NCBI GenBank assembly: GCA_028871895.1
Contig: JAGWLZ010000017.1
Coordinates: 15,933-79,932, forward strand
Direction: 5' to 3'
DNA from: Alphaproteobacteria bacterium
GTDB taxonomy: Bacteria; Pseudomonadota; Alphaproteobacteria; Micropepsales; Micropepsaceae
Length of the DNA: 64,000 nt
In this document: positions 1-64,000 of the stretch, in pieces
Numbering within the stretch: the stretch's first letter is position 1
Layout: the number at the start of each line of letters is the position of its first letter
The notes under the pieces: model-generated
The model's input: the letters and a program-made list of their open reading frames with translations, nothing else
Databases searched by the model: none
What the model was told of the DNA's origin: nothing
Translations under genes and position numbers: made by a program

Positions 1-287
1 CGCAGATGCGCCTTGGCGGCGGCCAGGCCCTTGCCGGCGAGCCTGGCAATGCGTGACTTGGTAACGACGCGGCGCTGCCGGTAAGCGGCATAACGGTCGC
101 GCGAAGCGAGCACGCGCGCGATTCCCGATCCGCGGCCGATCCGGCCACCCTGAAACTTGCTTCCCTTCCCTCTGCCGCCGCCCGCCAGATTGGATGCGTG
201 CAAGACACGTTGCAGATAGGTCCGCTCGCGTGGACTGCGTGGGTAACCGACTTTGCCGAGATGCGGTTCGAAGTCGTCGTCGCGCAT
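1..287 (-). CDS. rlxS: Relaxase (VirD2-like/DUF3363, RlxS type), 5' part only; runs off the left edge
   Basis: Not in the ORF track. Manual translation from ATG at 287 gives MRDDDFEPHLGKVG...RQRRVVTKSRIARLAGKGLAAAKAHLR, the typical N-terminus of these relaxases (RRVVxKxR...AHLRY). Lies downstream of slt, as in rdfS-traF-msi107-rlxS. Confidence 0.75.
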   Translation of the reverse strand, partial: MRDDDFEPHLGKVGYPRSPRERTYLQRVLHASNLAGGGRGKGSKFQGGRIGRGSGIARVLASRDRYAAYRQRRVVTKSRIARLAGKGLAAAKAHL

Positions 288-536: not shown

Positions 537-1181
537 CTACCACGCAGGCTTTGACAGCGGAACAAACAGACCATTGTTGTTCTGCGGCGCCGATGGAGCC
601 GGATTTACGATCGCATGTGTGCTTTCGAGCATGAAGAACAATGGGGAAGTGGATGGCTTCCTGAGCGGTAAATTCGCGTTGTCCTGCTTGGCAACAGCCA
701 AGTCCCGAGCCGCTACACCACCTGGTATGATGCGATTCACATAGGCCAATGTCGCCTTCGGCAATGACCATCCGTGCCGGAGAAACGCTTCAAACCGGCC
801 CGGTCCTGCATAATAGGCGGCGAACAGATCAGGGTAGCCGTAGCGCTCGAACATGGTGCGCAGATAGGCGGTTCCGGCCATGATATTGGTCCGAGGGTCG
901 TAGGGATCAGGACCAAGTTCGTACTGGCGCCGCATGTCCGCGAAGGTGCCGGGCATGAGCTGCATGAGCCCCATGGCGCCCGCAACAGACGTTATGGGCT
1001 CGCCGTTCAGCGTGGTTCGGCCACCACTTTCGGCGCCCATGACGGCGGCAATCCAGTCTTCGGGAACGCCAAAACGGACCGAGGCACGGGCGATGATCGG
1101 CTGCCATTGCACAACGGTCGGCGCCTTCATCGGCTGTGCGGCGCACAAAATGCAAACGACTGCAGCGCTCATGGACGCCAT
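537..1181 (-). CDS. Lytic transglycosylase (SLT domain; msi107/VirB1-like)
   Basis: AESGG catalytic Glu, GLMQLMP and AAYYAGPG motifs; N-terminal hydrophobic signal. Confidence 0.88.
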   Translation of the reverse strand: MASMSAAVVCILCAAQPMKAPTVVQWQPIIARASVRFGVPEDWIAAVMGAESGGRTTLNGEPITSVAGAMGLMQLMPGTFADMRRQYELGPDPYDPRTNIMAGTAYLRTMFERYGYPDLFAAYYAGPGRFEAFLRHGWSLPKATLAYVNRIIPGGVAARDLAVAKQDNANLPLRKPSTSPLFFMLESTHAIVNPAPSAPQNNNGLFVPLSKPAW

Positions 1182-1663
1182 AGCAGCCTCAACTTGCCAA
1201 GGATGGCGCTTCGCTCGACAGGTCCGAAATAGCGCCCGTCGAAGGAGTCCGGCACGTCGGCCATCAGGAGAAACACCTCACCTCGACCAAGAGCACGACA
1301 GCCGTACCAGGCCGGAAGCGGGCGGTGGTGCGTATCGAATGCGAGGCGGATCGCAACGGCACGGTCGTCGATCAAAATGCGGTTTCCGATGCTGCAAATG
1401 CGGTCTCTCTCGAGCGCCGCGATGCGTTTGACGAGCGGTACATGCTCGGGCAGATAGCCGCGGTTCGCCGCGAGTTGGCGTGCGCTCGCAGGTGGCTCTG
1501 CCAGCACGAGTTCGCCGATGCGGAGCGGTTCGGCGGGGGACACGGCGTAAAGACCGACCGGCGCGCTCGCGGTCACATTCCAGACAAGACATGGCGATTT
1601 TGCCGCAAATATGGAGGCTATCGCCAGGCTCGTTGCGGTGAGAATCGCTCGACGTGAGGCCAT
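1169..1663 (-). CDS. traF: S26-family conjugative peptidase TraF
   Basis: WNVTASAPVGLY (Ser), PLVKRI (Lys) and SFDGRYFGP motifs. Start chosen at ATG 1663, 1 nt after the rdfS stop. Confidence 0.85.
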   Translation of the reverse strand: MASRRAILTATSLAIASIFAAKSPCLVWNVTASAPVGLYAVSPAEPLRIGELVLAEPPASARQLAANRGYLPEHVPLVKRIAALERDRICSIGNRILIDDRAVAIRLAFDTHHRPLPAWYGCRALGRGEVFLLMADVPDSFDGRYFGPVERSAILGKLRLLWRP

Positions 1664-1664
1664 G

Positions 1665-1889
1665 TCAGCGTGCCCGCGAGGCCGACCACGCATCGAGGTC
1701 GTCGATGTGATAGAAGATGTTGCGGCCATGCCGGCGGTATCTGGGGCCGGTTCCGTGCTTGCGCATCCGTCCGAGTGTGTAGGGATTGAGATGTAGGTAG
1801 TGGGCTGCCTCTTTCGTACTCAAGAAAGGACTCCCCTTCTTTGCACGCATGACCCGAAGATTTGTTTCGTCGAGATTCTTGTCGCCCAT
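1665..1889 (-). CDS. rdfS: MerR/AlpA-type HTH recombination directionality factor (excisionase)
   Basis: 74 aa; FLSTKEAAHYL...TLGRMR..GTGPRYRRHGRNIFYHIDDLDAW HTH_17-like pattern; first gene of the rdfS-traF-slt-rlxS unit. Confidence 0.78.
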   Translation of the reverse strand: MGDKNLDETNLRVMRAKKGSPFLSTKEAAHYLHLNPYTLGRMRKHGTGPRYRRHGRNIFYHIDDLDAWSASRAR

Positions 1890-1927: not shown

Positions 1928-1988
1928 TTGTTAGAGGCGCAGAAACCGGCGCGGGACCGGAAGATTGCGGGCGGGCGCAATTTGCCGG
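1928..1988 (-). promoter_or_regulatory. Putative rdfS promoter with FseA-box-like inverted repeat
   Basis: Imperfect 32-bp palindrome at 1957-1988 (11/13 arm match; minus strand GGCAAA-N16-TCTTCC with inner TTGCG/CGCAA). It abuts a weak -35 (TCCCGC) 17 bp from a -10 (TAACAA, 1933-1928). Confidence 0.5.
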
Positions 1989-6388: not shown

Positions 6389-6665
6389 TTCCCCGGATGC
6401 AGGGCGGGCGGCGAGAAGCGACCGGAGAGCCCCGCTGAGGGAGGCGCGCCGCACCCCCCGGGGTCCCTGTCGCGCGCAGCGCGACGGGGTGGGGCTTAGG
6501 GCCGGAACGAAGTGGAGGACCGCGCGAAGCGCGGTTGCGGCGCGCCGCAGCGGGGCTAGAAGGGAGCGCCGCCTGCCCTGCAGAGGGGAACGGCCAAAAG
6601 AAAACTTCAGCGCGCGGCAGGTAGGCGCGTAGCGGCAGCGTGCGCGCGCGTACTGCCGCGCGCTG
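6389..6665. repeat. Nested foldback (ssDNA promoter-like) upstream of ardC
   Basis: IRs at 6389-6394/6585-6590, 6398-6413/6567-6582 (15/16), 6428-6437/6548-6557 and 6443-6453/6536-6546. Inner GNA-triloop hairpins at 6469-6485 and 6519-6535. Separate 13-bp IR at 6608-6620/6653-6665. Confidence 0.72.
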
Positions 6666-6735: not shown

Positions 6736-6999
6736 TTACCTGCGCCCTTTGCGTCTGCCGCCAGGGAGCGGCTTTACGGGGCTTCGCACAGCGGCCCTTT
6801 CGAAGAGTTCGGAAATCTCGACCGTCAAAGTGATCGCCAACTTCTCTAGAACGGCCACCGTGGGATTTTCGAGCTCGCGCTCGAGCCGGCTGACATAAGT
6901 CCGGTCAATTCCGGCGTCGACGGCCAACGCTTCCTGGGATAATCCGCGAGCCACGCGAAGCCGTCGGATGTTCCTTGCCACCAGAATCTGCGCCCTCAT
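6736..6999 (-). CDS. qseC: XRE/controller-protein-like HTH regulator QseC
   Basis: VARNIRRLRVARGLSQEALAVDAGIDRTYVSRLERELENPTV pattern; divergent from the qseM-like gene. Confidence 0.8.
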   Translation of the reverse strand: MRAQILVARNIRRLRVARGLSQEALAVDAGIDRTYVSRLERELENPTVAVLEKLAITLTVEISELFERAAVRSPVKPLPGGRRKGRR

Positions 7000-7092
7000 G
7001 TGGGAAGGCGAACAGGGTGCGGCTTTCTAAACCACGGACAATGGTGCTATCATTCTGGTGCTTTGGCTGGGAATGCATTGGAGTGATTCGCG
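7000..7092. promoter_or_regulatory. Overlapping divergent qseC/qseM promoters and operators
   Basis: Plus strand TTCTAA-N17-TATCAT (7025-7053) with extended TG. The same 29 bp read ATGATA-N17-TTAGAA on the minus strand. TGGTGCT direct repeat at 7042-7048 and 7056-7062. Confidence 0.45.
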
Positions 7093-7383
7093 ATGGTGCC
7101 AAGGCCGAGACCGTGCAAGGACCCTGAAATCGCCAATTCCGCGCCCGATGTGTCGTGTCTCACCGATTACGATTATAGGCTGCTCGTCACGTATCTGCGT
7201 CTGCTTGACGCGGAAAGAGAAGGCGCGGACTGGCACGAGGTTGCGCGGATTGTCCTCAAGACTGATCCCGACCGCGACTATCGACGCGCTAAACGCTGCT
7301 ACGACTCGCATCTAGCACGGGCCCATTGGATGACGGAACACGGTTACCGCCATTTGCTGCGGGAAGCAGACGACGAATGGTAG
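7093..7383 (+). CDS. qseM: Antiactivator QseM (DUF2285-type)
   Basis: LTDYDYRLLVTYLRLLDAEREGADWHEVARIVLKTDPDRDYRRAKRCYDSHLARAHWMTEHGYRHLL resembles the remembered QseM pattern (LTxYD...YMRLLDA...G.DP..EP.RA...SHL.RA.WM...GY). Convergent with fseA. Confidence 0.8.
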   Translation: MVPRPRPCKDPEIANSAPDVSCLTDYDYRLLVTYLRLLDAEREGADWHEVARIVLKTDPDRDYRRAKRCYDSHLARAHWMTEHGYRHLLREADDEW

Positions 7384-7387
7384 CGTC

Positions 7388-8173
7388 TCAGCGGAGGAAC
7401 GCCCGATATCCATGATCCATCAGGGTGCGGCCTCGCGTGATGGCGTGGCGAACCTGATCGCGCAGGTTTTCTTTGGGGTCGCGCCAGTCACGTTCGACGC
7501 GTTCGTGTCCGTAAAGCACTGTCGCAATCTCGCGCTGCGTTGCACCGCCGAGCCAGCCGTCCAGGGCTCGTAGCACAAACGTTAGGCGGGCGGCAGGCGG
7601 ATCAGGTGGGAAATATCGCTCGGGCAATCCGTGGCCGGCCCGACAGGCATGAAAACAGGCAAGCATCTGCACCTGATACACAAAGAGTGGTTCCGGCATT
7701 CCCGTATCAAATGTGAGTGTCACCGGCGCAAGCAAATTCTCTCCGCGAACGCAGAGTTGAAGGGCGCGTACGCCGTCCCGAATGAGAACATGCTGTAGCC
7801 CGTCATCGGCAAGAAGCAGCGTGGTGGGTAATTGGGTGTCCGCTAGCACAAAGGGTTGCGTCTTTGTCTGCGCCGGCAGGGCCAGAAGACGCAGCACCTT
7901 GGGGCAAGCATCGGGATCCCAAAAGACCGTCGCAGCGCCAGCGTCCTCATCGGCAGAAACGGTGAACAGGCAGGCCTCGGTCGGCATTGTCGAACGAGCA
8001 CAAACCACCTGCAGCGGACCGCCGTCTGTGCGCTTTCGCCATTTGGCCGTCTCGCACGCCTCGCGAAACGAGTCTTTGCGGCGCAAATATTCCCAGGCAA
8101 AGGCCTGTCGCGGAAAGCGAAGAAAATCGTAACCTGTGCGCCAGTCGGGCGGCACTTCCGATGCAGCTGACAT
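7388..8173 (-). CDS. fseA: Transcriptional activator FseA (DUF6499 plus DUF2285 fused in one frame)
   Basis: N-terminal DW...YD....PRQAFAWEYLRR (DUF6499). C-terminal LRALDG...GATQREIA.VLYG.ERV..DW......LRDQVR.....GR.LM..GYR.FL (DUF2285). Downstream of traI. Confidence 0.82.
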   Translation of the reverse strand: MSAASEVPPDWRTGYDFLRFPRQAFAWEYLRRKDSFREACETAKWRKRTDGGPLQVVCARSTMPTEACLFTVSADEDAGAATVFWDPDACPKVLRLLALPAQTKTQPFVLADTQLPTTLLLADDGLQHVLIRDGVRALQLCVRGENLLAPVTLTFDTGMPEPLFVYQVQMLACFHACRAGHGLPERYFPPDPPAARLTFVLRALDGWLGGATQREIATVLYGHERVERDWRDPKENLRDQVRHAITRGRTLMDHGYRAFLR

Positions 8174-8232
8174 GGATCATCTCCACGCCCCCGAGCCAAT
8201 GCTACCCTCTCCCCAGGGTGAACGTGTTGAAA

Positions 8233-8862
8233 TCAGGCCGCGCGCACGACGGGCGCCCAAAGCACCGGGCCGTCAAGGCCGCCGAGTTTGCGCAGGCGCT
8301 TGAGCGCGGCAACCGAGACTTCGAGATAGCCAGCGACCGCCATTGTGGTACCGATCGCCCGCGGCGGTCCGAGCCTTGCAAGCGGCCAAGCTGCACGTCG
8401 CAGGATCCGTTCCATGCGCACATCGGTCACCGTCAGGATCCTGCTCAACGATTTTGCCAGCCCGAACTCGACCATGCCGGCGAACAGCTCGTAGGTCGGG
8501 GCGGCAAGCCCGCCTCCCGCGTTGGCCGCATCGCGGTGTATGTCGAGTGCAAACCGGCTGCTCTCCCAAACATCGGCCGCCCCGGGAACCGGACCATTTG
8601 GCAGAAGCGCCGGAAATGCGTCACGCAGCATGGTAGGTCCCAATGACGGGAGCAAGCGGACGCAACCCTGAATCTGGCCGTCGAATCCCCTTAGCAGCAA
8701 GTAAGCCGGCTGCAGCGCATCGAATTCGTCGGCTTCCATGTCGCCGGCAGTCTCAACTTCCCACCCCAGGCGTTCCTTGAAGACGCGGTAGCGCAGACGG
8801 TGCATTTCGGCGAGAAGGTCAACAAACTCGCCATAACAGTTAGGTGTAATCAGTTGAATCAC
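8233..8862 (-). CDS. traI: Acyl-homoserine lactone synthase (LuxI family)
   Basis: MHRLRYRVF..RLGWEV...E.DEFD, GCVRLLP, WESSRFA and LTVTD motifs. GTG start at 8862 with SD GGAGG. Confidence 0.93.
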   Translation of the reverse strand: MIQLITPNCYGEFVDLLAEMHRLRYRVFKERLGWEVETAGDMEADEFDALQPAYLLLRGFDGQIQGCVRLLPSLGPTMLRDAFPALLPNGPVPGAADVWESSRFALDIHRDAANAGGGLAAPTYELFAGMVEFGLAKSLSRILTVTDVRMERILRRAAWPLARLGPPRAIGTTMAVAGYLEVSVAALKRLRKLGGLDGPVLWAPVVRAA

Positions 8863-8917
8863 GATCGCCTCCGTAATGGTCGGCGCGATTGAAGCGGAAT
8901 GCAGAGCGGATCGGATA

Positions 8918-8933
8918 CTGTCCAGTTGGTCAG
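8918..8933. promoter_or_regulatory. Putative tra/lux box for traI-fseA
   Basis: CTGTCCAGTTGGTCAG (6/8 pairs), centred ~63 bp upstream of the traI start. Candidate -10 TTCAAT (minus strand, 8893-8888) at class-II spacing. Confidence 0.55.
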
Positions 8934-9676
8934 GGGGGCGAGGAACCAGACCCTCGCTCGTCCGCTTGGGCCTTGGCGAGAAGGACCGCCGCCTGGCAGA
9001 TGGTGCGTACGCCCAGTTTGTGACGCACATTATCGAGATGGAACTTTACCCCGCGCGAACTCAGTCCCAGTATCGCCGCGATATCAGGCTGCGACTTACC
9101 CTGGGCTGCATGATTGAGACACTCCACCTCCCGAACGGTGAGCTTGACGTCGCCAATCTGGACACAATGAAAGAGTTTCCATCGTGCATGCGCGTGAAGC
9201 GAAATCGCCATCAGCTGTAGGACACGCCGGTTGGTCTTGATCGTGTGCTGGAACGCAACTCTGCGATCGTCACTCGCGAAGGTCACTGCGGCTACCGGTT
9301 CGTTGTCGTATTGTATTGGAACCGTGAAGCCGGAACGAATGCCAAACTGCGCGGCCTCTTCGAAAAATTTTTCCTGGGCAGTCGACATGAGCAACGTGTC
9401 GGCGCCCATTCCCCATTCAAAGGGCTCGCTCTGGCGATGAGCCAGAACGATAACTGGATCGAGTTTCTCGTAATGGGCCTTAAGATAATAATCTGTCCAT
9501 GGCAGCGGGTAGTTCGAGATGAGCTCCGGGCCGGCTTTCCTGCGGCGTGGCATCGTCAAATAGGCGAAGCACGGCAGATCGAACGCGATCGCCGTTTCTG
9601 CCATGGCTTGGTGGAAGCCTTCGCGGTCGTAGCTTTCGTTCAGGCGATCCACGAATCTTTGAAAGACGCGTTGCAT
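8930..9676 (-). CDS. traR: LuxR-family AHL-responsive regulator
   Basis: Autoinducer-binding motifs SNYP..W...Y, DPV, FEW, G...GFTVP; C-terminal LT.RE.ECL...AQGKS..DIA.ILGLS..GVKFHLDNVR.KLG HTH. Confidence 0.92.
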   Translation of the reverse strand: MQRVFQRFVDRLNESYDREGFHQAMAETAIAFDLPCFAYLTMPRRRKAGPELISNYPLPWTDYYLKAHYEKLDPVIVLAHRQSEPFEWGMGADTLLMSTAQEKFFEEAAQFGIRSGFTVPIQYDNEPVAAVTFASDDRRVAFQHTIKTNRRVLQLMAISLHAHARWKLFHCVQIGDVKLTVREVECLNHAAQGKSQPDIAAILGLSSRGVKFHLDNVRHKLGVRTICQAAVLLAKAQADERGSGSSPP

Positions 9677-9794
9677 GCTCGATCCCGTAAGACGGGAAGA
9701 CCCGGTATGAACTAAAAAGACCGACTATATGCTGTGCCCTTCCAAGCCCTGCGAGCTCGTCGATTGACGGTATCGGTCGAATGGCACATTCCCT

Positions 9795-15839: not shown

Positions 15840-15949
15840 ATTCTTTTAGTAACTCTTAGTGGCATTCAGAACTGGAATACTGCACGGTTTCTGGCAGAAT
15901 GTGCTGCCAAATATCGACGATTATTGCGATCGAAACAGGAGATTCCTCG

Positions 15950-62902: not shown

Positions 62903-63856
62903 GTGCATCAGAGAGGTCTCGCATTGATTTCGCGAGAAGTTCTGTACCAGCTTGTCTGGTCCAAGCCGGTGACAAAAGTCGCCGCCGAATTCGGTGTCTC
63001 CGGCAGCTACCTAGCCAGAATGTGTACTCTGCTGAACGTTCCTCGACCCGAACGAGGCTACTGGGCCAAGCTTGCCGTTGGGAAGGCCCCTTCACCCCAG
63101 CCGCTCCCAGAACCGCGTCTGGGCGATCAGCTACATTGGTCAAACGATGGGCTACAACCTCCCCAACCGCCACCACCGCGATCCGTCCCTATCCGGCGCA
63201 AGCGACGAATTCGTTTGCCAGAAAATCAAATTCACAACTTGGTCGCCGGCGCAAAAGTGCACTTCGAAAACAGCAGAACTGAGGGCGATGAGGGTTATCT
63301 TAAACCCTTCAAAAAGCTGCTTGTCGATGTGACCGCCTCTAGGGCTTGCCTGAGTAAGGCGTTGGACTTCGCCAACACTTTATTCAACGAGTTCGAGGCT
63401 TGGGCACCGAGTCGTATTGGCCTCTTCAGAGGCCAATTTGCGGCGCGCCAACGTCGATGAACGCGACGTGCGAATCAAGCAGAGAAATGAATACTACTGG
63501 GGCAATCTCTGGTCTCCTCAACGCCCGACTGTAGTTTATCTCGGGAGTGTGGCCATTGGACTCGCTATCGTCGAGATGTCGGAAGAGGTGTTGCTCCGTT
63601 ATGTCAGCGGAAAATACATCCGAGAAACGGATTACCATCCCGCCAAAACATCTCGCTACGGTGCTGACCACACATGGACGACGCCCCGTGAACTCCCATC
63701 GGGTCGGCTTCGGCTCATCGCCTATTCACCCTATCGGCGGGTCAACTGGTCTAAAGAGTGGCACGAAACGACCAAGTCCTCTCTGCTAACCGCGATCAAA
63801 ACCCTAGCCAAATCGGTCGAGAACGAGGCCGCGGCCATGATGGTGAAGCTCGAAGA
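62903..63856 (+). pseudogene. Conserved hypothetical mobile-element protein, frameshifted (~63400) and truncated by IS21
   Basis: N-terminus SRE.LY.LVWSKP.TKVAA.FGVSGSYLAR.C..LNVPRP.RGYWAKLA.GK (HTH-like). The protein-like reading continues in the second frame (LGHRVVLASSEANLRR...). ORF ends 10 codons into IS DNA. Confidence 0.65.
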
Positions 63857-64000
63857 TGTAAATTCGCTCGCAATAATGACCCCCTGAGGGGTGTTTTTCG
63901 CGTCCAAAACCGACCCCTCTGACGAGATGTGTCAGCGTCCTTCCTTTGGCCTGAGTTGGCCGGGAAGGACTGGAGGGGATGATCGGCGTGGACATGATCG
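63857..64000 (+). mobile_element. Left end of an IS21-family element
   Basis: Starts TGT. Internal repeats CAATAATGACCCC (63871-63883) and CAAAACCGACCCC (63905-63917). SD GGAGGGG precedes an ATG at 63979. Confidence 0.65.
63979..64000 (+). CDS. istA: IS21 transposase IstA, first 7 codons only
   Basis: MIGVDMI... after a strong SD, downstream of an IS21-like terminus. Confidence 0.5.

Follow-up and report, generated by a model that had tools for sequence, protein, structure and literature searches.

The window analyzed here is a stretch of 64,000 nucleotides from an alphaproteobacterium of the family Micropepsaceae (positions 15,933 to 79,932 of contig JAGWLZ010000017.1, assembly GCA_028871895.1; contig C44 of genome G000 in our numbering). 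Between positions 6736 and 9676 it carries a module of 2941 bp with five open reading frames (ORFs), all of which are intact by the ORF map and the sequence. Their products are the receptor TraR, the acyl-homoserine lactone (AHL) synthase TraI, the activator FseA, the antiactivator homologue QseM, and the helix–turn–helix (HTH) regulator QseC. The order and orientation are those of the five regulators of ICEMlSymR7A from Mesorhizobium japonicum R7A: traR, traI, and fseA, then a convergent qseM and a divergent qseC. A preliminary description of this DNA, made from the letters alone, had proposed this arrangement, and the gene orientations, the tail-to-tail meeting of fseA and qseM, and the divergence of qseC are as it stated.

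Five regulatory genes in one module

The qseM stop codon (TAG, 7381-7383) and the fseA stop codon (TGA on the minus strand, 7388-7390) face each other across 4 bp (7384-7387). The gaps between traR and traI and between traI and fseA are 67 bp and 59 bp, respectively. Terminator prediction gave nothing in the spacers from traR through traI to fseA, nor at the point where fseA and qseM meet. Given so short a gap without a terminator, the transcripts of these two convergent genes must run into or overlap each other.

Two start codons required a decision. The longest ORF for traI begins at an ATG at 9030 and would encode 265 residues. This start was rejected in favor of the GTG at 8862, which is preceded by GGAGG and yields a protein of 209 aa. 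Gene calls in relatives are likewise 209 aa long and begin with GTG at this point, and tblastn alignments to them span residues 1-209 at 79-80% identity. With this start, traR and traI do not overlap. The public gene call for 7388-8173 begins at an internal Met and covers 199 aa (76% of the ORF) without the DUF6499 domain. Full-length homologues back the complete 261-aa fseA ORF.

The proposed gene identities are confirmed by profile and structure matches (Table 1). Among PDB entries, TraI matches LasI (1RO5) at 1e-33, and the best match of TraR is the TraR of NGR234 (2Q0O, 1e-21). Signature residues of the LuxI and LuxR families are kept in the alignments of both proteins. TraI is 79-80% identical to TraI of the Rhizomicrobium palustre type and 63% identical to Mesorhizobium TraI, and the corresponding values for TraR are 50-53% and, for TraR of Mesorhizobium ICEs (integrative and conjugative elements), 44-47%. 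The traI gene is the only LuxI-family AHL synthase gene matched in the whole genome. A solo TraR paralogue of 244 aa (55% identical; G000:C12:41823-42557, L094 5824-6558) lies ∼76 bp from a multi-copy repeat of insertion sequence (IS) type that ends contig C12, and no second traI was found in the genome.

FseA joins an N-terminal DUF6499 domain to a C-terminal DUF2285 domain (PF10074, at present named RovC_DNA-bd in Pfam) and carries the motif AWEYLRRK at residues 26-33. Residues W27, E28, L30, R31, R32, and D205 do not vary among 16 aligned homologues. D205 is the aspartate that pairs with the arginine of the DUF6499 alpha-2 motif. An AlphaFold2 model (predicted local distance difference test score 75.9) has RovC (6xz5) as its sole PDB fold match with E < 0.001 (E 7e-6, template modeling score 0.52/0.62), and R7A FseA has likewise been published as a RovC-like fold. 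The closest group to this FseA is that of Mesorhizobium (44-48% identity).

The fseA gene is a single ORF without the W-G slippery motif, and the +1 ribosomal frameshift that R7A needs is thus not a feature of this copy. About 61% of FseA genes need a frameshift, leaving ∼39% as single ORFs (PMC10359603). The gene is split at RWG(I/V) in locus L087 of a sister genus (genome G017) and in the Mesorhizobium loci L005 and L022. Both forms occur within Micropepsaceae, split in G017 and fused here and in genomes G014 and G068. Since the G017 copy is split, at an RWGI site, frameshifted and fused fseA interconvert within one bacterial family.

QseM is a lone DUF2285 domain with no DUF6499 upstream. 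The domain had been predicted for both the 7093-7383 and the 7388-8173 proteins, and PF10074 is found in both. Over residues 13-89, nearly its full length, QseM matches the nuclear magnetic resonance structure of R7A QseM (PDB 7UQT) at E 6.8e-13. Residues R36, D39, R76, and W79 align with R28, D31, R68, and W71 of the R7A protein. In R7A, mutagenesis has shown that FseA binding or antiactivation depends on these four residues (Jowsey et al., PMC10359603). QseC is 39-47% identical to HTH genes that diverge from qseM in Mesorhizobium, Bradyrhizobium, and Hyphomicrobiales loci, and no Shine–Dalgarno sequence was found before its ATG.

Table 1. Genes and candidate DNA sites of the regulatory module and of the neighboring conjugation genes (window coordinates)
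Feature	Position	Strand	Description
qseC	6736-6999	-	87 aa; PF01381/HTH_3 at 4e-14; Cro/C1-type, controller-protein-like HTH regulator
qseC-qseM promoter/operator region	7000-7092		93 bp between divergent start codons; candidate motifs only
qseM	7093-7383	+	96 aa; PF10074/DUF2285 at 3e-9; DUF2285-only antiactivator homologue
fseA	7388-8173	-	261 aa in one frame; PF10074 at 6.5e-19 and PF20109/DUF6499; activator
traI	8233-8862	-	209 aa; PF00765/Autoind_synth at 2e-44; LuxI-family AHL synthase
tra-box-like imperfect dyad CCTGACCAACTGGACAGT	8917-8934	-	overlaps traR stop codon; 55-72 nt upstream of traI start
traR	8930-9676	-	248 aa; PF03472 Autoind_bind and PF00196 GerE; LuxR-family AHL receptor/activator
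rlxS, 5′ end	3-287	-	continues past the window (L001 14243-15940); PF11843 DUF3363 at 4e-140 and Relaxase domain
msi107-like lytic transglycosylase gene	537-1181	-	PF01464 SLT at 5e-17
traF	1169-1729	-	S26-family conjugative peptidase; PF10502 at 1e-20; overlaps rdfS 3′ end, as in R7A rdfS-traF-msi107
rdfS	1665-1889	-	74 aa; excisionase/recombination directionality factor; PF12728 HTH_17 at 8e-10; 55-57% identical to Mesorhizobium RdfS
FseA-box-like inverted repeat	1959-1986	-	GGCAAA-N16-TCTTCC, then GGTCCC; upstream of rdfS; degenerate

Candidate DNA sites and the conjugation genes

The dyad CCTGTGCAACTGCACAGG precedes the traI start by ∼65-80 nt in ∼13 Mesorhizobium loci. At the equivalent position, the window has CCTGACCAACTGGACAGT, which matches 14 of the 18 bases. 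An exact-seed repeat search for a perfect tra box returned nothing, and this candidate emerged only from the positional comparison with Mesorhizobium. In the 3.9-Mb genome, only 24 sites have four or fewer mismatches to the dyad, so support for the candidate tra box comes from its position. R. palustre-type loci have a different dyad, CCCCATAAGAGTTTGGGG, at this position. Elsewhere in the genome, the near-perfect palindrome TCTGTGCATATGCACCGG (G000:C73:119608-119625) resembles a tra or lux box and could be recognized by TraR or by its solo paralogue.

The published FseA box consists of inverted hexamers that are separated by a 15-16 bp spacer (geometry 6-N16-6) and lie beside the rdfS promoter. 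The repeat upstream of rdfS reads GGCGAA-N16-TTCGCC followed by CGTCCC in Mesorhizobium and CCGGCGAA-N16-TTCGCC-GGTCCCC in Micropepsaceae relatives. The half-sites in the window (GGCAAA and TCTTCC) differ from those of R7A (GGCGAA and TTCGCC). The 6-N16-6 geometry, the flank, and the distance to rdfS are kept, with the proximal hexamer ∼70 nt before the rdfS ATG.

Between qseC and qseM, the octamer TCCGTGGT occurs on the minus strand (7031-7038). Its distance to the qseC ATG downstream, 31-32 nt, is kept in three loci: the window and the two loci with the closest qseC genes (L062 and L017). Other candidates in this spacer are ACCA-N7-TGGT at 7031-7045 and a 7-bp direct repeat, TGGTGCT, at 7042-7048 and 7056-7062.

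The rdfS-traF-slt-rlxS genes lie 5 kb from the switch. Reading away from the module, the genes on the minus strand are ardC, an acidic ORF, a ParB-like gene, a DUF736 gene, rdfS, traF, the lytic transglycosylase gene, and rlxS. Beyond rlxS, the same strand carries a defence-like insert, traG, a CopG-like gene, trbB, trbC, trbE, trbJ, and trbL, the last of which is cut at codon 40 by the left end of the contig. The rlxS-traG interval (L001 10052-13560) holds three inserted genes, one of the DUF6791/ThiF family, one dCTP-deaminase-like, and one unassigned (425 aa), with an XRE regulator nearby. This insert looks like a small defence island within the conjugation backbone.

To the right of traR are 54 kb of metabolic and transport genes, including pckA, gdh, putA, trehalase and esterase genes, prpCDB, and genes for TonB-dependent receptors. 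This part contains one IS and has uneven G+C content, and its catabolic genes are likely to be cargo of the element. The proposal of a catabolic element is plausible, although neither end of the element is on the contig and the contig itself ends in a multi-copy repeat.

Recurrence of the layout in relatives

The host can be placed by RpoC, which is 92% identical to that of R. palustre, 96% identical to that of a genome from the same genus, and 76% identical to that of Mesorhizobium. These identities indicate a Rhizomicrobium-like member of Micropepsaceae. The host genome is 98% complete.

The module belongs to a known family, and its layout recurs in relatives; it is not a new minimal design. 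R. palustre, in a chromosomal contig of 4.26 Mb, and two metagenome contigs carry traR, traI, a single-ORF fseA, and a convergent qseM of 96 codons. The flanking genes differ each time, and the genes upstream of traR are unrelated. No qseC is detectable beside qseM in these R. palustre-type loci. The full five-gene layout including qseC is present in two other Micropepsaceae genomes, G017 (another genus; L087, G017:C1:21508-25122) and G068, and genome G014 has traR-traI-fseA. Across the R. palustre and Micropepsaceae loci (L082, L084, L087, L088, and L089), the gene order, the 209-aa TraI with its GTG start, and the variability of the upstream genes all resemble the window. The tail-to-tail fseA/qseM gaps there are 8-15 bp, compared with 4 bp here. 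We found no published description of these five loci in the literature. Close TraI homologues (58-73% identity) occur in 4 of 100 sampled genomes of the family, a patchy distribution that fits a mobile element.

The layout is also present in Mesorhizobium. Loci L005 and L022 have a full-length TraI gene (63% identity) directly before fseA, and L024 shares the layout. Many other Mesorhizobium loci retain a mere traI remnant there. In R7A, the fseA operon is traI2-msi172-msi171 (PMC8789080). The symbiosis elements descend from an ancestor in which the traR-traI pair was duplicated, with later losses that differ between elements, and the placement of traR-traI beside fseA has been treated as ancestral (PMC8627217). 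These relatives bear on two proposals of the preliminary description. The claim of a minimal or new version of the circuit fails against the R. palustre, metagenome, Mesorhizobium, and Micropepsaceae loci. The claim of a single traI in the fseA operon stands as a description, given that traI is the only such gene and precedes fseA with no predicted terminator, but its novelty does not, since traI2 occupies this place in R7A.

A location outside a symbiosis island was a further proposal. Nitrogenase NifDK was not found in the genome. NodA was not found either, although this negative is weak because the search also missed all control genomes. The absence of these genes agrees with the proposed location. 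However, such a location is not new: orthologues of the core genes have been reported on elements throughout proteobacteria and are widespread outside symbiosis islands (PMC8789080, PMC10359603). The quorum-sensing-linked form is the less common variant outside Mesorhizobium.

Modules without quorum sensing, which are common on elements of alpha-, beta-, and gammaproteobacteria, share with the window the DUF2285 FseA/QseM pair, an XRE-type controller, and the most similar QseM proteins. They differ in that traR and traI are missing and that qseC, qseM, fseA, and rdfS follow one another, with a common direction of transcription from qseM to rdfS. In the window, fseA instead lies behind traI and converges on qseM.

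Proposed control of transfer and its alternatives

The module probably serves as the transfer-control unit of a conjugative element of the ICEMlSymR7A family, with a trb-type type IV secretion system and a DUF3363-type RlxS, in the Rhizomicrobium-like host. By homology with R7A, we infer the following regulatory steps. TraI would produce the AHL. TraR-AHL is predicted to bind the tra-box-like dyad that overlaps the traR stop codon and to drive a single traI-fseA transcript, which would provide positive feedback together with the activator. An FseA dimer would bind the inverted repeat upstream of rdfS and activate rdfS-traF-slt, and probably rlxS, leading to excision and conjugation. QseM, as a DUF2285-only decoy, is expected to bind the alpha-2 helix of FseA DUF6499 and inactivate FseA, and it may bind TraR-AHL as well. 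QseC would set the level of qseM.

Several differences separate this module from that of ICEMlSymR7A beyond those in the DNA sites. FseA is encoded by one ORF, and a single traI that looks intact occupies the operon, whereas R7A has a decaying traI2 in this place and a separate traI1. The host belongs to Micropepsales rather than Hyphomicrobiales, no symbiosis genes were found, and only 5 kb separate the switch from the rdfS operon. A tra-box-like site upstream of traI-fseA and an FseA-box-like site upstream of rdfS-traF-msi107-rlxS are common to both. The TraR/TraI/TraM systems of Ti and rhizobial repABC plasmids are similar in outline, in that a LuxR/LuxI pair activates conjugation and a small antiactivator restrains it. 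Moreover, the NGR234 TraR that best matches TraR here was solved with TraM. However, the antiactivators are unrelated (DUF2285 vs. TraM), and the system described here would have an extra FseA tier and an excision step.

Some observations weigh against this reading or parts of it. The half-sites of the FseA box are degenerate (4/6 self-complementary), and a loose version of the pattern matches three times in the window. No integrase or attachment repeat is present on the 80-kb contig. An inverted-repeat search and a comparison of 13 qseC upstream regions revealed no clear palindromic operator pair for QseC. Furthermore, qseC2 is absent: within the 382 bp that separate qseC from ardC, no HTH-like ORF reaches 25 aa, and only GC-rich inverted repeats are present. 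QseM is also much less acidic than its R7A counterpart. By sequence-level charge, it is -3 as a whole and +1 in its core (residues 22-90), compared with -9 for the stretch of the R7A protein that aligns with it and +3 for the DUF2285 of FseA. At these values, the hallmark of a negatively charged decoy is weak.

These findings bear on the proposal that the module is a complete bistable switch, which is not supported. In R7A, a stable, heritable switch state needs both QseC and QseC2, plus an antisense-qseC promoter downstream of qseC (PMC8789080). The module offers neither qseC2 with its antisense promoter nor a definable operator pair, and any bistability of the present module would have to be argued from R7A. 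The GC-rich inverted repeats that occupy the place of qseC2 are dense and nested (6389-6665), for example with perfect 14-nt arms at 6607-6620/6653-6666, and they possibly form a terminator or a single-strand structure. The finding is mainly an annotation. With it, the range of the quorum-sensing R7A-type switch reaches beyond the symbiosis islands of Mesorhizobium to non-symbiotic elements in another order, Micropepsales. As a naturally simplified copy, with one traI, no frameshift, and no qseC2, the module could be used to probe which R7A layers are needed for all-or-none behavior, and whether dual targeting of FseA and TraR by QseM is general.

The dual targeting itself is the part most open to a rival explanation. 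QseM might act on FseA alone. This would leave AHL production outside QseC/QseM control and reduce the circuit to a simple quorum-sensing cascade, held back after translation at one point only, in contrast to the dual-target design of R7A. The closest QseM proteins (58-63% identity) come from elements that lack traR and traI within ∼6 kb (L044, L047, L053, and L062) and from a second copy in this genome, on contig C42, whereas identity to the QseMs of Mesorhizobium quorum-sensing elements is only 33-44%. Because QseM resembles the proteins of non-quorum-sensing elements more, its binding to TraR is not to be assumed. The QseM-TraR interface is structurally uncharacterized (PMC10359603), and hence there are no residues to check. 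However, the QseMs of other quorum-sensing-linked Micropepsaceae loci are 75-79% identical, which points to a QseM lineage associated with quorum sensing. No gene for a TraM-type antiactivator was found in the genome, although this counts for little because the control genomes gave no matches either. On balance, action on FseA alone is possible, but we consider it the less probable arrangement.

A second alternative concerns the input to the circuit. The traR gene might be fed mainly by read-through from putA-gdhA-pckA, such that proline and glutamate catabolism would gate the circuit in addition to cell density. A spacer of just 118 bp (9677-9794) separates the end of pckA from the start of traR, and both genes share a strand. 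Neither a terminator nor a sigma-70-like promoter was predicted in this spacer, which folds no better than shuffled sequences (z = -0.3). These features would permit read-through, but many alphaproteobacterial promoters escape simple consensus scans. Moreover, the motif GAGCTCGCA ... TAGTC is common to this spacer and the region upstream of R. palustre traR, which hints that traR has a promoter of its own. The genes upstream of traR in relatives are unrelated, so any such coupling would be local and possibly accidental. We therefore regard metabolic gating by read-through as unlikely.

Control of transfer by the module also presupposes an element that still moves, and the state of the contig ends is relevant here. 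The last ∼147 bp at the right end (63850-64000) are common to ∼8 contig ends. Identity is 99-100% with the ends of C1, C30, C32, C40, C42, and C59 and 97.5% with an end of C25, and these base pairs constitute one end of a multi-copy insertion sequence. A repeat of another type ends C29, C12, C3, C9, C35, C45, C58, and C68. No end-to-end overlaps were found between C44 and other contigs. A 46-bp tRNA-Gly repeat lies next to an integrase on C29 and C31, and C31 carries paralogous trbJ-trbL that are 86% identical to the start of C44. This repeat was considered as an attachment pair for the element but was rejected as proof, since the two contigs C31 and C44 share no more than 86% identity at their starts. 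For the same reason, C31 represents a sibling element or a collapsed repeat. Altogether, at least four related sets of conjugation genes, including that of C44, are present in the genome, and the assembly breaks here because the genome carries this family of sibling elements.

These data allow the view that the element is a resident relic that no longer excises or transfers, with TraR and TraI serving as the general quorum-sensing system of the host for cargo or chromosomal genes. The status of traI as the only AHL synthase gene of the genome, the solo TraR paralogue beside an IS-type repeat, the lack of an integrase or attachment site tied to the contig, and the truncation of the trb operon by the contig end are all in keeping with it. 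However, all the regulatory and transfer genes seen are intact (traG, trbB-E, rlxS, traF, and rdfS, in addition to the module), and assembly breaks at repeats that at least four sibling elements have in common account for what is missing. A relic is thus improbable. A plasmid backbone is slightly more improbable still: although the contig has no integrase, tRNA gene, or attachment repeat and the same conjugation and regulation genes have been reported on plasmids (PMC8627217), no gene for replication was recognized on it, an excisionase gene (rdfS) is present, and the homologues in R. palustre and G017 lie in the 4.26-Mb chromosomal contig and a single-contig genome of 5.2 Mb, respectively.

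An active transfer-control unit in such a genome might have effects beyond its own element. The presence of at least three further conjugation sets, a second fseA/qseM pair, and a solo TraR means that the AHL, FseA, and QseM could act in trans. With the only AHL synthase gene of the host inside its fseA operon, neither the frameshift brake nor qseC2, and a traR that may be read through from a proline/glutamate catabolic operon, it could be a "master" element that acts on its siblings in a nutrient- and density-gated hierarchy. This reading is speculative, and we consider such a hierarchy improbable. The further R7A-type sets are distributed over C31, C57, C59, C60, C61, and C62, with TrbE, TrbL, TraG, and RlxS at 43-87% identity. 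The second fseA/qseM pair (G000:C42:9545-10681, L093) comprises a single-ORF fseA of 266 codons (33% identity) and a convergent qseM of 95 codons (61% identity). No traR or traI lies near it, and the upstream cargo includes a heavy-metal P-type ATPase gene. Cross-talk between this pair and the module in the window is conceivable.

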